A DNA stretch of 64,000 bases from an uncultured Verrucomicrobiae bacterium (GTDB lineage: Bacteria; Verrucomicrobiota; Verrucomicrobiia; Chthoniobacterales; UBA10450). The position numbers are program-made. The stretch is taken from assembly GCA_963726745.1 (NCBI GenBank), contig CAVSDR010000006.1, positions 928,001 to 992,000 of the forward strand. Direction: 5' to 3'. Positions 38,401 through 44,400 of this stretch are shown one piece after another (position 1 is the stretch's first letter; each line of letters opens with the position of its first letter).

Positions 38401-41400
38401 CCGCTCGATCCGTCGGCGATGGCAGATGGAAATGCCGCCGGTTTCTTCCGAGACGATGATCGCGATCGCGTCCGACTCCTCGGTAATCCCGAGCCCGGCG
38501 CGGTGCCGCAGGCCGAGACTGCGGTCGAGCGTTTCGCGCTGGCTCACCGGGAAAATGCAGGCCGCCGCGGCGATCCGGCCATTGCGCATGACCACGCCGC
38601 CATCGTGCAGCGCGCTCTTTGGGTGAAACAAGGTCAGCAAAAGCTCGACGGAAAAGACGGAGTCGAGCTCGACCCCAGTTTCCTCGTAGACGCGGATCGC
38701 GGTATCACGCTCGATCGCGATCAGCGCGCCGAATTGCTTGTTCGCCAGCTGCGTGACCGCCTCGCCGAGGTCGTGCACCGTCTCGCGTTTCTCACTCGTT
38801 AGGGAAAAGATCGGATGCCCGCCCAGCTCGGCCAGGCCGCGGCGCAGTTCCGGTTGGAAAATCACCACCAGCGCGACCGCGAGGAAGACCGAAAAGCTGC
38901 GGATGATCCAGCCGATCACGGTCAGGTTCAGCAGCTGCGAAATCAGGGTGAGCGTGAGGAAGACAATCGCCAGGCCGGTGAGCACCTTCGCGCCGCGGGT
39001 CCCGCGGAAATAGAGATAGCCGTAGTAGATCCCAACGCTCAGCAGGATGATCTCGAAAAGGCCGCGCCATTTTTCGAGCCAGAGCTGGAGGAGCTGTTGA
39101 ATCATACGACGGGTTCGAGAAGGGCTTCAGTCACACGAAGTGCGGCCGCGTTCGGTTGGACGTCGTGCACCCGCAGGATATTCGCGCCGCGTTCACGCAG
39201 CAGCGCCGTCAGGGCAACGGTCGGCGCGAGGCGATCTTCTGCCGCGGCCAGGTTGTCGGCTATTTTCGCGAGGAAGGATTTCCGCGACACGCCTACCACC
39301 AGCGGACGATCGGCCACGCGTAATTCCGCGAGGTGACGCAGGAGGCGCAGGTTGTGTTTCAACGTTTTCCCGAAGCCGATCCCCGGATCAAACGCAATCG
39401 CCATCGGATCGATGCCGCAGTCTAGGGCGCGGGCATATTCTTGTCGAAAAAATTCCCGCACTTCCGCGATCACGTCGTCATACTGCGGCGCGTCCTGCAT
39501 CGTCCGCGGCGTTCCTTGCATGTGCATGAGGACAAACGCCGCGCCGCTTTCCGCCACGGTCGCGAGCATCTCGCTGTCTCCGCGACCGCCGGTCACGTCG
39601 TTCACGATCGTCGCGCCGGCGGCGACGGCCGCGCGCGCGACCGCGGCCTTCGAAGTGTCGATCGAAAGGAGCGCATCGGTTTCCGCGCGCAGTCGTTCGA
39701 TCACCGGAAGCACGCGGCGCAATTCCTCCGCTTCCGCCACTGGTTCCGCGCCCGGGCGGGTCGACTCGCCGCCGATGTCGAGGATGCGCGCGCCTGCCTG
39801 CGCCATGCGCACGCCCTGCGCGACCGCGCGCTCGTGATCGAAGAATTGTCCGCCATCGGAGAACGAATCCGGGGTGACATTGAGCACGCCCATGAGCAGC
39901 GCGCTGGACGTAAGGTCGAGCATCGCGCCGTCTACTTTCCAAAGCACGGGCGTCATCGGCCACGAGCGTATCACAGCGCGGCGCTTATTCGAAGCCGGCA
40001 AGATTCCGCTCGTTTCTCCTCGGTCGCTCGCGGAGAGTAGCGCTCCTCCTGTTGAAATCGAAAACTGAACTGAAGTCCGAGATTCTGCGCATCCTCGGCG
40101 CCCCGAAATACCGGCCGCTCGATAAAACCGAGCTCGCGAAAGCACTCCAGCGCAAGAGCGGCGAGCGCATGCAGCTCAACGAAATCCTGCGCGAGCTCGA
40201 GCGCGATGGCGACATCGCGCGCATCCGCAAGAACCGCTACGTCCTCCCGGCGGAAGCCGACCTCGTGACCGGCTCGCTCCATGTGCACCAGTCCGGTTTT
40301 GCCTTCCTCACGAACGAAGCCAAGCCCGGCGAGAAGGACCTGTTCATTCCCGCGGAAGCTACCGGCACCGCGATGCACGGCGACCGCGTGGTCGCGCGAA
40401 TCACCCGCGACGAGCAATATGCCCGGCACAAGGGCGCCTCCGCGCGCGCCGAGGGCCGCATCATTCGCATCCTCGAGCGCGCGCACGACACCATTGTCGG
40501 CACGCTCCAGCAGTCGCGAAATTTCTTCGTCGTCGTGCCGGATGACCCGCGGATCGTGCACAACGTCTACGTCCCCGCGCCGCAGAACCGGTCGGCTAAA
40601 GTTGGCGACAAAGTGGTCGTGCGCCTCGAGGCGTGGGAATCGCGCCACGTAAATCCTGAGGGCGAGATCGTGGAGAATCTCGGCTCTGCCTCCGCGCCCG
40701 GCGTGGACATGCTTTCGATCATCCGGAAGTTCCATCTGCCCACGGAATTTCCCGCCGCCGTCCTCGCCGAGGCCGAGCAGATCCCGGAGACGGTGGACGC
40801 GTCGCGTTATCCGGAGCGGGAAGATTTGCGCCGGCAGTTCATCGTCACGATCGATCCCGATGACGCGCGCGATTTTGACGACGCGATCAACGTGGAACGC
40901 CTGCCTGGCGGCGGCTGGAGCCTCGGGGTGCACATCGCGGATGTCGCTGCCTATGTCGCCCCCGGCTCCGCGCTCGATCGCGAGGCGGTCAAGCGCGGCA
41001 ACAGCGTTTACCTGCCCGACCGCGTGATCCCGATGCTGCCGGAGCGCCTGAGCAACGGCGTCTGCAGCCTGCGGCCGGACGTCGACCGCCTGACGCATTC
41101 CGTCTTCATCCAGTTCGATCGCGGCGGGAAGCCGCGGCAAACGCGCTTCGCCCGCACCATCATCCGGAGCGCGCGCCGCCTGACCTACCGCCAGGCTTTC
41201 GCATTCTTGAAGTCGCCGCCTAACGACCAGTTGAGCGAGCGCCTCCATGTCGCCTGGGAGCTGGCTTCGCTCCTGCGCAAAAAACGTTTCCAGCAGGGCT
41301 CGCTCGATCTCGATTTCCCCGAGGTGAAAGTCCGCCTCGATGCCGAGGGCAAGCCGGTCGAGCTCGAGCGGATCGAGAACGACGAGTCGCACCAGCTGAT

Positions 41401-44400
41401 CGAGGAATTCATGCTCGCGGCCAACGAAGCGGTCGCGCAGGAATTAAAGAACAAGCTCATGCCTTCGGTCTACCGCGTGCACGAGAATCCGGATCCGGAT
41501 AAGCTGGCGGACTACCGCGAGCTCGTCCTGAGCTACAACTACAAGGCGGGCGATCTCACCCAGCGCACCGAACTCCAGCGTCTCCTCGCTTCCTTCCGCG
41601 GAAAGCCGGAGGAACAGGCGCTCAAGATCGGCCTGCTCAAGAGCCTGAAGCGCGCGCGTTACGCGGTCCAACCGCTCGGGCATTACGGATTGTCGAAGGT
41701 CAATTACACGCATTTTACCAGCCCCATCCGGCGCTACGCCGACCTCGTGGTCCACCGCTCCCTGGCGGAACTCGGGTCCGGCCGGAAAGCGCGCGGCGAC
41801 CTCGGGCAACTCGGGTCGCTCGCGGAACACATCTCGATCACCGAGCGCAACGCGGCCGAGGCCGAGATCGAGGCGGTGAAGCTGAAGAAGCTCGAGTATT
41901 TCCAGCGCCAGCTGGAGGCGAAGGAACCGCAGGTCTTCCGCGCCTCCATTCTCGAGGTGAAGAACTTCGGCCTGGTTGTGGAGTTGCCCGATGTGCTCCT
42001 CTCCGGTTTGATCCACGTCTCGTCGCTGACGGACGATTTTTATCACTACAATCCGGCGCAGCGAAAACTCGTCGGCCGGCAATCTCACCGGCAATTTTCC
42101 GTGGGCGACGAAGTGCGTGTGCGGGTTGCCCGGGTCGATACCTTCAAGCGCCAGGTCGACTTCGCTCTGGTCGATGAACGGCCCGCAAAAGCTCCCCGGG
42201 GTCGACGTTAACCCCTCAGCGCGAACAGCTCACGCAAGTTTCTCAAATCAAGATGCTTGTGGGTTAAAACAGGGAAAAATTCGCTTTCAGGCACCTAGGG
42301 ATTTTGCTTATGATGAGCCCCTTCCCCCAATGGACAACGTCATCGAAGTGAAAGAACTGCAAATCGAGCGGAAACATTTCCAGCTCGAGCTGCGGGAGAA
42401 TGAGCGCGGAAAATTCCTCCGGATCACGGAGGAGGCGCATGGCCGGCGAAACACGATCATTCTCCCGAGCACCGGGCTGGAGGACTTCACCGCGGCCTTG
42501 GGCACGATCGTCAACGTTGCCAACGAGCGGATCCCCGCCGCCTCTTAAACCGGCGATCTTTCCCGAGTCAGGATCACGGCCACGTAGGCCGTTTCCGGCA
42601 GGATGTATTTCCGCAGTTCCAGGCGCACCCGGCGCAGCGGAAAAGTAGCCAGCAACTCGAGTATGATCTCGCTGGCTAAAGTTTCGAGAAGACGGTCGCG
42701 CCGCAGCCCCACGAGGCGTGTCACCGTCTCCGCGACCGCGGCGTAGTTGACGGCATTTTCTATTCGATCGTCCAACTCCGAAAAATCACGCGCCGGCCAA
42801 AGCGTAAGGGAGGCGGTCAGCCGTTGCTCATGAGCGCGTTCTTCGTCCGGAACTCCCACGTGCGCGGAAAGTTCGAGCTGCTCGAGGTGAATCGCGTCGG
42901 CGGCGGGCATGGCAGGAAGGCGCTGGGCGACGGTCGCCCGGGCATGGGCCGCAGTTAAAACAATTCCGTCGCGCGGCACAACTCCGGGGAAAGTTTTCCG
43001 TAGTTAGACGGTATGACTCTCCATCGGACGCGCGTCCGCCGGGGTGTGGCGATCGCCCTCAGCGCCGCAACGCTCGGCGGCGCCCTCGGGCTCTGGACCA
43101 CGGAAGAACCGGCCCGACCGAGGCGGCCTGCCCCGCTCCCGCTGTGCCGCGCGACCGATCTGCCGCAGCCTCCGCCCGCCTTCGATTCCGGGCAGCCGGA
43201 TTGGGATAGCTTCATCGGCGGCGCAGCGCTGGCCACTCGTCCGTTGGATTTCGTTCCGCTCTGGGAGGACAAAGACGGCAGCGAATTTGGCAGCGTTCTG
43301 GGCCTCGGGACCCGCGGCGCCGGCGATCTTTTCCGGTGCACGCGCGATGGCCGGATCCGGCCCGTGGCCCGGTTCGCGTCGGCCACGGGCGGCGCCTCGC
43401 CGCCACCGGAAGAGGAACTCGCCGGGATACTCGATGCCTTGGACGCACCCGCGGTCCCAAGGCCGGCGCCATCGGTCCGTGCGAGCGGCGAAAGTCCCGG
43501 ACTGCGCCAATCGGATCGCAACTTCGTCCTGAACAATCCGTAGTTTCCTATATGCGGGTCGAATGGCTTTTTTTGCGGTGGCTGGTTATCATCGGGGCGA
43601 TTGTCGCAGGCGTGGTTTACGCCACCTCGCATTATCGAGGCGAGGAAGGGGTGCATTACCAGGTGGTGCCGCTGGTCCAGGGAGAGAAAGCGCTGGGCTT
43701 GCCCCTGGCCGGCGTGGTGGTGAATCCGCTCAACCGGCAGGTCTACGCGATTGTCGGTGGCGCGGCCGCGCACCCGGCTAACGGCCCGGATTTCTTTATT
43801 GCTTGGTCGACGTCGGAAGGCCAGACCTTCAGTGCCAATTTCGCAGCCGACAACGGCGGTTGCTCGCTCTGTCGCCTGGGGCCGGAGGGCTCCCTCCTTT
43901 CCCATGAAGCACTGACCGCTGCGGGCTCCAAGGCCAGCAGCGCCAGCCTGGACCGCGAAAGCCTCCAGGTGATTTTGCATGCCCTGCCCCACCGGCATCC
44001 TGCGGAACCGGCCGAAGGCCGCCCATGAGCCGGGTGCGAGACGGTCGTTCATCCTACCGGGCCGCGCCGCGCGCGTGCCCGGTCTGCGGTTCCACCTATC
44101 GCACCCGCGGCATCTGCCCGCATTGCTTCCTGCGGCTGGCGCTCGAGCCGAAAGGAACGCTGGATGCGGCCGCCTTCCAGAAAGCCCTGGACGAGACCGA
44201 GGAACGGCACCCGGGGCTCTAACGTCGACTCGTTAGCCGACGCGGAAACGCAGATCGCGGATCACTTTGCCGCCAAAGCGCTGCTTCAGTTTCCGAAGGA
44301 TTTCCGTTTTCGAAATGGTCTCGAATTGGTAGTGCAGCGCGGGCTGCAGGACGCGCACAAAGAGAACGCCCTCGCGCAGGCTTACCGGGGCCGAATGCGC

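Follow-up and report, generated by a model that had tools for sequence, protein, structure and literature searches.

A single-repeat PUR protein encoded behind the RNase R gene in an uncultured Verrucomicrobiae bacterium

The protein BpuR of Borrelia burgdorferi is reported to form a homodimer with a preference for RNA and to repress translation of its own mRNA and of sodA mRNA (PMC6736767). It is also described as a co-repressor of erp. According to the published account of the Borrelia PUR protein, its single repeats must pair to make one PUR domain. In Drosophila Pur-alpha, binding and unwinding are reported to need residues K138, N140, R142 and F145, which contact ssDNA or stack on it (PMC4764581). 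The PC4-like/Whirly-type proteins such as SP_0782 and YdbC/DUF2128 are likewise reported to be small beta4-alpha units that bind single strands as dimers (PMC7549692). Here we describe a PUR protein of one repeat, P0001, encoded directly behind rnr in a Chthoniobacterales genome, and compare its locus with those of its relatives.

The PUR gene and its predicted product

The window analysed is a stretch of 64,000 nt from one contig of this genome. The features around the PUR gene are given in Table 1.

Table 1. Features of the rnr-PUR locus, in positions of the window.
Feature	Position	Strand	Basis
cdaA	38230-39105	-	Pfam DAC + CdaA_N
folP (dihydropteroate synthase)	39102..40145	-	Pfam Pterin_bind, 293.1 bits
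rnr (ribonuclease R, 719 aa, TTG start)	40052..42211	+	ORF, Pfam, TIGR02063
rnr-PUR spacer, 118 nt	42212..42329	+	sequence
A-tract in spacer	42275-42279		
-35-like box, CTTTCA	42284-42289		
-10-like box, TATGAT	42309-42314		
Single-repeat PUR gene (P0001, 72 aa)	42330..42548	+	Pfam PurA, ATG at 42330
folB (dihydroneopterin aldolase)	42545..42979	-	Pfam FolB, 74.6 bits

The rnr product matched the Pfam families RNB (365.1 bits), CSD2 (112.9), OB_RNB (70.7) and S1 (40.1) and scored 729.7 with the NCBIfam equivalog TIGR02063 RNase_R (cut-off 597.85); just 15 aa follow its S1 domain. The upstream boundary of the rnr-PUR unit is folP, which is divergent from rnr and overlaps cdaA by 4 nt. Downstream, the unit is bounded by the convergent folB, whose stop codon overlaps that of the PUR gene within TTAA; most relatives have ppdK at that place. 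The ppdK of the window's genome lies on another contig, and its matches jump between three frames. A six-frame profile search of the genome found a single PurA locus, the one described here, with 34 bits.

P0001 matched Pfam PurA (PF04845) with 36.7 bits (E 3.7e-09) against a cut-off of 25, its residues 5-62 covering profile positions 83-145 of 219. Using phmmer against the PDB, the protein was matched in two stretches each of Drosophila Pur-alpha (3k44, E 3.7e-14) and human PURA (3.6e-11). Each chain was modelled by AF2 (pLDDT 92.8) as one beta-beta-beta-beta-alpha PUR repeat, with predicted strands at residues 3-12, 15-24, 27-36 and 39-45 and a helix at 47-65. The top Foldseek matches of this model were 5fgp, 3k44, 8cht, 5fgo and 3nm7, all with probability 1.00, Drosophila and human Pur-alpha ranking first and Borrelia Pur-alpha after them. 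The preliminary description of this DNA had placed a 72-aa reading frame 118 nt behind rnr on the same strand, had named RNase R as the product of the partner gene and had read the small protein as a lone PUR repeat with a PurA score over the gathering cut; all of these points were confirmed.

By homology, the binding motif of P0001 would be E13 R14 K15 ... R22 E23 N24 E25 R26 G27 K28 F29. R22, N24, R26 and F29 align with the four Drosophila residues named above, so that the K/R-x-N-x-R motif with its Phe is present, the first position being Arg where Pur-alpha has Lys. These four residues were invariant in an alignment of 21 of 21 orthologues of group A, the order-specific PUR lineage of P0001, and N24 and R26 were also invariant over 47 diverse PURs. 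Since a lone repeat must pair, as in Borrelia, it is a fair inference by analogy that P0001 is a homodimer that binds single-stranded nucleic acid.

In the spacer, the -35-like and -10-like boxes are separated by 19 nt, and TATGAT ends 15 nt before the PUR ATG. Relatives in the family show the same aligned module, with an A/T tract, CTTCC, 18-19 nt and TAnAnT. A looser pattern (a CTTCC/TTGCTT-type box, 14-24 nt, TAnnnT, 10-40 nt, ATG) was found in 61 of 78 orthologous PUR upstream regions but in 1.9% of shuffles. Of 51 loci with rnr upstream, 37 had the module before PUR, as did 24 of the 27 loci without rnr there, and this conservation away from rnr is an argument against a dedicated accessory of RNase R. 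From these patterns we infer that the PUR gene has a promoter of its own in the 118-nt spacer, from which it would be expressed. A strict sigma-70 scan of the spacer gave no site. In the same genomes ppdK uses TTGACA, from which the -35-like box of the module (CTTCC/CTTTCA) departs widely, and the module could therefore be another regulatory or processing element. As the spacer showed no clear intrinsic terminator, transcription may read through from rnr into PUR. CGGCGG-like strings past the -10-like box occur in many PUR relatives but not in the window copy.

Gene order and distribution

Of 151 sampled Chthoniobacterales genomes, 144 gave a PurA match, as did 40 of 151 genomes from an even draw over the Verrucomicrobiota; 14 named control genomes gave none. 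Both samples agree in size with the figures the preliminary description had given for the order and the phylum. At least 46 of the 151 order genomes had rnr and PUR adjacent (46 of the 117 in which both matches were listed), a share similar in size to its 240 of 794.

The conserved block of the order is rnr-PUR-ppdK. The order-sample adjacency counts are lower bounds, taken among the matches listed: PUR adjoins rnr in at least 46 of 124 genomes and ppdK in at least 43 of 124, and the 150 PurA matches listed divide into 31 with both neighbours, 15 with rnr alone, 12 with ppdK alone and 92 with neither. In the 80 closest loci, rnr lay upstream of PUR in 50 of 74 and ppdK downstream in 65 of 72 (63 by script, to which L091 and L116, where the ppdK frame overlaps PUR, were added). 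Orientation was nearly uniform among the matches listed: in 45 of 46 linked cases from 10 families the PUR gene followed rnr in the same direction, and in 43 of 43 ppdK stood behind PUR, again in the same direction. The rnr-PUR gap was 62-249 nt in 21 loci, never an overlap. In at least 10 of the 16 families of the order, the rnr-PUR adjacency was kept though the outer flanks had changed.

In the tree, the linked PURs formed one clade (support 100/99, stem 1.58), which means that the arrangement arose once. Outside the order, neither RNB nor PPDK was found among the flanking ORFs of 20 PUR loci. Family f6 has an A-type PUR beside unrelated genes. The preliminary description had itself raised the concern that the adjacency might be neutral local gene order; the single clade and the 20 loci outside the order point to one inherited block.

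PUR also occurs in genomes in which RNase R was not found. RNB was found in 142 of the 151 phylum-sample genomes, 109 of which had RNB and no PurA. Seven of the nine genomes lacking RNB carried PurA, so that 7 of the 40 PurA-bearing genomes gave no RNB match; all four genomes of family f22 in this sample are of this kind. Six order genomes had RNB and no PurA match. Co-occurrence of RNB and PurA fails in the phylum sample, and nothing here indicates a shared pathway of PUR and RNase R. In two 0.9-Mb, 99%-complete genomes (G009, G024), PUR and ppdK were kept with no RNB match and no match to the window's RNase R protein; in one of them the intact PUR gene is preceded by 31 nt left over from the 3' end of rnr.

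The link with ppdK has gaps as well. At least four genomes of family f16 (G044, G126, G134, G142) keep the rnr-PUR pair with no PPDK_N match, and 9 of 15 sampled family-f14 genomes with PurA lack one. The latter include G013, G041, G053, G064, G074, G092, G132 and G140. A promoter of its own (TTGACA-N16/18-TAnnnT) was found for ppdK in 60 of 69 PUR-ppdK gaps, against 0.2% of shuffles.

Proposed role and alternatives

We propose, with a probability of roughly 0.6, that P0001 is a self-standing homodimeric binder of RNA or ssDNA, similar to BpuR and expressed from its own promoter, and that its place behind rnr is a relic of gene order. By analogy with BpuR and with repeats I and II of Pur-alpha, two chains would assemble into a single PUR domain that offers two equivalent faces for binding, with R22, N24 and R26, the stacking F29 and the E13-R14-K15 turn in each. 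By homology, the dimer may clamp single-stranded RNA (or ssDNA) that is rich in purines or in G and could keep short stretches single-stranded without ATP. Its role would be that of a general housekeeping regulator or chaperone that binds RNA or ssDNA, for which the closest model would be BpuR, a repressor of translation that binds the 5' leaders of mRNAs. The locus would be what remains of the ancestral Chthoniobacterales order rnr-PUR-ppdK after the ppdK side was lost in the window's genome; as such a remnant, the adjacency to rnr is no evidence of a dedicated partnership. Besides the possible read-through from rnr and the divergent -35-like box, two further observations count against this proposal. 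The strict orientation of the rnr-PUR pair and its survival amid changed flanks may reflect some selection for co-expression, and the long stem branch of group A would agree with a shift in function once the gene had settled between rnr and ppdK.

A broader version, possible but rather doubtful, is that PURs act generally as RNA chaperones or post-transcriptional regulators in those Verrucomicrobiota that carry them, group A having become specialised so as also to feed RNase R. If so, PUR and RNase R would be loosely linked in function through single-stranded G-rich or structured RNA, with no obligate complex. A general RNA chaperone may be set beside the finding that Hfq was found in none of the 151 sampled phylum genomes.

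That P0001 acts mainly on DNA, as an ssDNA-binding factor of the Whirly/PC4 type with a part in transcription, replication or repair, seems to us unlikely. Pur-alpha and Borrelia Pur-alpha are reported to bind (GGN)n ssDNA, the co-repression by BpuR is of erp transcription, the weaker fold matches of P0001 include the PC4-like ssDNA binders SP_0782, T5 PC4-like and MoSub1, and sources name its relatives 'DNA-binding protein'. The PURs of family f38 have long acidic C-terminal tails with an aromatic residue at the end. Such a tail with a terminal aromatic residue is like those of bacterial SSB. Against this, BpuR is reported to favour RNA over DNA, and a DNA-metabolism gene never recurs beside PUR in the contexts scanned.

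The preliminary description had proposed that the small protein is a homodimer that binds single-stranded RNA and either works with RNase R as its partner or sets its specificity. Homodimer and single-strand binding are fair by homology, but the partnership is unsupported: the block belongs to one clade, the link with ppdK is equal or tighter, and PUR persists where RNB was not found. A dedicated accessory, co-expressed with RNase R, that binds structured or G-rich 3' regions of RNA or melts them, and passes them on to the exonuclease or sets its specificity, is accordingly improbable in our judgement, in spite of the recurrent gene pair, the action of both proteins on single-stranded RNA and the conserved Phe, the residue that Pur-alpha is reported to need for ATP-independent unwinding. 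Among 86 longer PurA database proteins, three singletons join PurA with S1 or RNB (P0186, P0196, P0206), but they are outnumbered by six singletons that join it with PPDK_N; the fusions probably come from gene calls in which two neighbours were merged. The length of the RNase R tail also tracks family and not PUR linkage.

A tie of the group A PUR to ppdK, for instance by binding the ppdK promoter or leader or through co-regulation of the two genes, is very unlikely: the six joined proteins, the uniform order and the pair kept in genomes that lost rnr point to it, but ppdK mostly has a strong canonical promoter of its own, the pair is not found in the 20 loci outside the order, some rnr-PUR genomes have no PPDK_N match, and the window's genome keeps an intact PUR gene with its ppdK on another contig, where the matches are spread over three frames.

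Comparison with known systems

Known companions of RNase R are SmpB-tmRNA, and rnr and smpB are neighbours in Firmicutes. Like rnr-PUR, rnr-smpB has a gene for a small RNA-binding protein directly behind rnr, but PUR is unrelated to SmpB. The fold matches of P0001 to the PC4-like/Whirly proteins are far weaker (E > 0.1) than those to PUR proteins, with no sequence relation.

A second verrucomicrobial lineage, group B (...DLKENxRGRFLKITEDVxGRRDTI...), has the size and motif of group A and co-exists with it in families f5, f7, f8 and f12, but forms a separate clade (100/99). In families f13 and f3, group B was the sole PUR type found. Its genes never lay beside rnr in the 18 loci scanned; a TrpRS-like gene was upstream in 8 of these and carB downstream in 4.

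Repeats I and II of eukaryotic Pur-alpha (3K44, 5FGP, 8CHT) are closest to P0001 by sequence and share with it the KNR+F motif, the QSK-type turn and the fold. Pur-alpha has three repeats per chain, I and II pairing within the chain and III dimerising, whereas P0001 has one, so its domain must form between chains.

BpuR (Bb-PUR, BB0047; PDB 3N8B, 3NM7) shares with P0001 its bacterial origin and the single PUR repeat. The preliminary description went too far in calling a function of PUR proteins in bacteria new, as BpuR already has a published one. A homodimeric PUR domain that binds purine-rich ssDNA and RNA is reported for BpuR and is probable for P0001 by analogy. The two differ in length, BpuR having 122-127 aa and P0001 almost no extension past its repeat, and in genomic setting, bpuR reportedly adjoining a tRNA gene. 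The P0001 model superposes on BpuR at TM 0.69 with 19-21% identity in the structural alignment, but 3n8b and 3nm7 were not among its phmmer matches, even at E <= 10; as the fold alone matches, P0001 may work like BpuR but is no orthologue. By this analogy BpuR is the best working model for the function of P0001, which would lie in binding of mRNA leaders and repression of translation.

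The PUR gene of the window and its product

The preliminary description had a 72-amino-acid-residue PUR ORF lying 118 nt downstream of the RNase R gene, and this was confirmed as written, in the coordinates, the Pfam PurA match and the RNase R assignment. The rnr product scored 729.7 bits against a cut-off of 597.85 with the NCBIfam RNase R equivalog model. Against Pfam PurA (cut-off 25), PUR scored 36.7 bits; the match covers the repeat II part of the profile (positions 83-145). NCBIfam has no model for PUR. According to the genome search, it is the sole PurA locus of the window's genome. 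folP and cdaA are located upstream of rnr in the opposite direction; folB is located downstream and is convergent with PUR, the two stop codons overlapping. The ORFs of the G+C-rich stretch between folB and dciA gave no Pfam match below E 0.001. Beyond it, dciA, rpoN and the ORF at 46672-48042 are again housekeeping neighbours.

Features at and around the PUR gene (window numbering)
Feature	Position	Strand	Remarks
cdaA/folP	38230-40145	-	4-nt overlap; housekeeping neighbours of rnr-PUR
rnr (RNase R)	40052-42211	+	719-aa ORF; Pfam OB_RNB, CSD2, RNB and S1, the full RNase R domain set
rnr-PUR spacer			118 nt, between the rnr stop codon and the PUR ATG at 42330
Upstream module, CTTTCA	42284-42289		window copy
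Upstream module, TATGAT	42309-42314		window copy
PUR	42330-42548	+	ATG start, 72-aa ORF
folB-dciA stretch	42980-44230		about 1.2 kb, G+C up to 0.72; long overlapping ORFs
ORF in this stretch	42955-44052	-	
ORF in this stretch	43336-44028	+	
dciA	44233-44592	-	
rpoN	44595-46082	-	
ORF	46672-48042	-	response-regulator or sigma-54-activator type, from sequence, without Pfam scan

When all PDB sequences were searched with phmmer, PUR matched Drosophila Pur-alpha repeats I-II (E 3.7e-14) and human PURA (E 3.6e-11), whereas the Borrelia PUR protein gave no match at E <= 10. To our knowledge, the Borrelia protein is the only bacterial PUR protein that has been studied. The AlphaFold2 model of PUR, built on an alignment of 47 diverse PURs, consists of four strands followed by one helix (pLDDT 92.8). 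Foldseek ranked Pur-alpha first for this model, with Borrelia Pur-alpha slightly lower (TM 0.69, 19-21% identity).

In the co-structure of Pur-alpha with single-stranded DNA, the DNA is contacted by K138, N140 and R142, and F145, which stacks on a guanine, is required for ATP-independent unwinding (PMC4764581). These four residues align with R22, N24, R26 and F29 of PUR, all invariant in 21/21 orthologues. A PUR domain needs more than one repeat, and the Borrelia protein builds it as a homodimer (PMC2954813, PMC6736767). Because a lone repeat is insufficient and the binding residues are invariant, PUR is predicted, like the Borrelia protein, to form a homodimer and to bind single strands.

Throughout the order Chthoniobacterales the protein is 65-82 aa long and very well conserved. 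Of the 151 order genomes in the sample, 144 had PurA and 143 had RNB, the domain marking RNase R; PUR is kept even in reduced genomes of 0.9 Mb. Longer database forms, mostly of 127-250 aa with PF04845 (PurA) alone, probably have their start codon annotated too far upstream. Among 86 matches to longer PurA proteins, three singletons were joined to S1 or RNB and six to PPDK_N, the domain marking ppdK, as would arise if adjacent genes had been merged in gene calling. A fusion of rnr with PUR, considered for the 813-1085-aa open frames that surround some PurA matches, was rejected: these frames belong to the downstream ppdK side and rnr has its own stop codon.

Outside the order, PURs of one family of the phylum (f38; L046:3902-4210(-), L047:4001-4333(+), L048:3881-4192(-)) carry acidic C-terminal tails of 30-45 residues with a terminal aromatic residue. 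Such a tail resembles the protein-recruiting tail of bacterial SSB.

Linkage of PUR to rnr and ppdK

In the order sample, rnr and PUR were adjacent in at least 46 genomes, with PUR downstream on the same strand in 45/46, which matches the linkage in about a third of the order that had been stated before. The next gene after PUR is nearly always ppdK, so that the conserved block is rnr-PUR-ppdK. Among the 150 PurA matches listed, 31 had both rnr and ppdK as neighbours, 15 only rnr, 12 only ppdK and 92 neither. A second, independent set was made up of the 80 closest loci (L079-L158), taken from one-genome-per-species contigs titled Chthoniobacterales, Udaeobacter, Spartobacteria or Verrucomicrobiota MAGs. 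The result was similar: 50/74 informative loci had rnr before PUR, and 65/72 had ppdK after it. Thus, the block may be broken upstream or downstream of PUR, and linkage to ppdK is kept no less well than linkage to rnr. The window's genome belongs to the minority in which the ppdK side of the block has been lost, and its ppdK-like gene lies on another contig (C3:655786-657703). The query matched this gene in six pieces spread over three frames, and an internal TGA interrupts one of them; this is due either to gene decay or to indel errors of the assembly.

Two groups can be distinguished among the PURs of the order. A tree of 47 PURs places all rnr- or ppdK-linked copies in one clade on a long stem (support 100/99; group A), and the second group (group B) clusters with PURs from other families of the class. 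Neither RNB nor PPDK was found among 58 ORFs flanking 20 PUR loci from 11 families outside the order, where the neighbours vary (polyprenyl synthase with YidC, DnaK with RsmB, ECF sigma factor, KsgA, QueG, RtcR and others). Since the linked PURs form a single clade and none of the 20 outside loci is linked, the linked genomes together amount to a single evolutionary event.

Family f6 of the order carries A-type PUR next to epimerase, ThiD or ArsR genes, and in family f13 only B-type PUR occurs. In 8/18 order loci scanned, the gene immediately upstream of group B PUR encodes a TrpRS-like class I tRNA synthetase, which makes a second conserved PUR neighbourhood. The TrpRS-like gene also precedes PUR once outside the order and once in f13. 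These loci are L002, L004, L006, L012, L018, L024, L030, L031, L053 and L185, and carB follows in four.

In a sample of 151 genomes of the phylum Verrucomicrobiota, PurA was found in 40 and RNB in 142; such counts are descriptive only, as the sampled genomes are related to each other. Seven of the nine RNB-less genomes carry PurA, including all four genomes of family f22 and two single-contig genomes of 0.9 Mb (99% complete), which had no match to the window's RNase R protein either. In one of these two 0.9-Mb genomes (G009), a 31-nt stretch (L072:3406-3436) matches the 3' end of rnr from a relative with 87% identity, and an intact PUR gene follows after about 105 nt; rnr appears to have been lost in place here and PUR retained. 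RNB without PurA was found in 109 genomes. Each gene therefore manages without the other.

Putative transcription signals

The rnr-PUR spacers of 21 loci were 62-249 nt long, with no overlaps. A conserved module precedes PUR: an A/T tract, CTTCC, 18-19 nt and TAnAnT, ending about 20-30 nt before the ATG. A looser form of this pattern was present in 37/51 loci with rnr upstream and in 24/27 without (1.9% of shuffles). The canonical TTGACA-N16/18-TAnnnT promoter pattern was found before ppdK in 60/69 PUR-ppdK gaps (0.2% of shuffles) and in none of 78 PUR upstream regions. By these predicted promoters, PUR and ppdK would be transcription units separate from rnr and PUR, respectively.

In the window, a strict sigma-70 scan of 39800-42800 gave no promoter, and a terminator scan of the same region gave four terminator-like sites (3.3 expected), all outside the rnr-PUR spacer. 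Among the sequencing runs listed as matches there was no RNA run and one soil DNA run (0.42 of the words).

Among the 80 closest loci, the predicted ppdK promoter is very well conserved (TTGACA, 16 or 18 nt, TAGTTT or similar), and in many PUR-ppdK spacers the PUR stop codon is followed at once by strong G+C-rich hairpins. In many PUR upstream regions the -10-like box is closely followed by CGGCGG- or CCGCGG-like strings, GGN-rich sequence of the type to which Pur-alpha binds. These strings could be a putative autoregulatory site, as in the Borrelia burgdorferi PUR protein BpuR. The PUR leader of the window is C-rich and has no such strings.

PUR as a probable autonomous nucleic acid binder

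PUR is best seen as an autonomous small PUR-domain protein that would bind single-stranded nucleic acid, with BpuR as the functional model. The preliminary description had taken it for a partner of RNase R, which, if true, would involve bacterial PUR proteins in RNA decay. The evidence speaks against this partnership: the linkage is confined to one clade, that to ppdK is equal or better, PUR is kept without RNB, and it has its own promoter-like module. Nothing was found that singles out RNase R over ppdK. PUR and RNase R might still be loosely linked, by having RNA substrates in common or by read-through transcription. Complex prediction for RNase R with two PUR chains scored 0.00 in both runs, with an uncertain partner fold and without controls, and carries no weight either way. 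Among the matches listed, literature pairing RNase R with Pur-alpha was eukaryotic or circRNA work only.

Substitution of PUR for a missing basic RNase R tail was rejected, as tail length tracks family and not linkage (21-65 aa in families f6 and f8, with two exceptions; 3 aa in f13 and f9).

Pfam Hfq (PF17209) matched 0/151 sampled Verrucomicrobiota genomes and 5/14 control genomes. Hfq thus seems to be missing from Verrucomicrobiota, and another general RNA chaperone could fill its role; PUR is a candidate for a global RNA-binding protein there. For PUR and Hfq as alternatives within the phylum the sample offered no contrast, Hfq being 0/151 with or without PUR.

A function for bacterial PUR proteins, put forward before as new, has a precedent, as the fold and function of BpuR are already in print. 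BpuR, a homodimer with a preference for RNA, acts as a translational repressor on its own mRNA and on that of sodA, and deletion of its gene proved impossible (PMC6736767). A literature search on the PUR domain in Verrucomicrobia found no papers, and PUR is not known to have a described function in this phylum. Notable features of PUR are that it is nearly universal in the order, persists in reduced genomes and is close to animal Pur-alpha; the lack of Hfq matches in the phylum sample is a further notable point. PUR, predicted to be homodimeric, would be a minimal model of the domain that is mutated in human PURA syndrome. In sequence, animal Pur-alpha is much nearer to the verrucomicrobial PUR than the Borrelia protein is, and this relation might bear on the origin of the eukaryotic repeat or on a transfer between domains of life.
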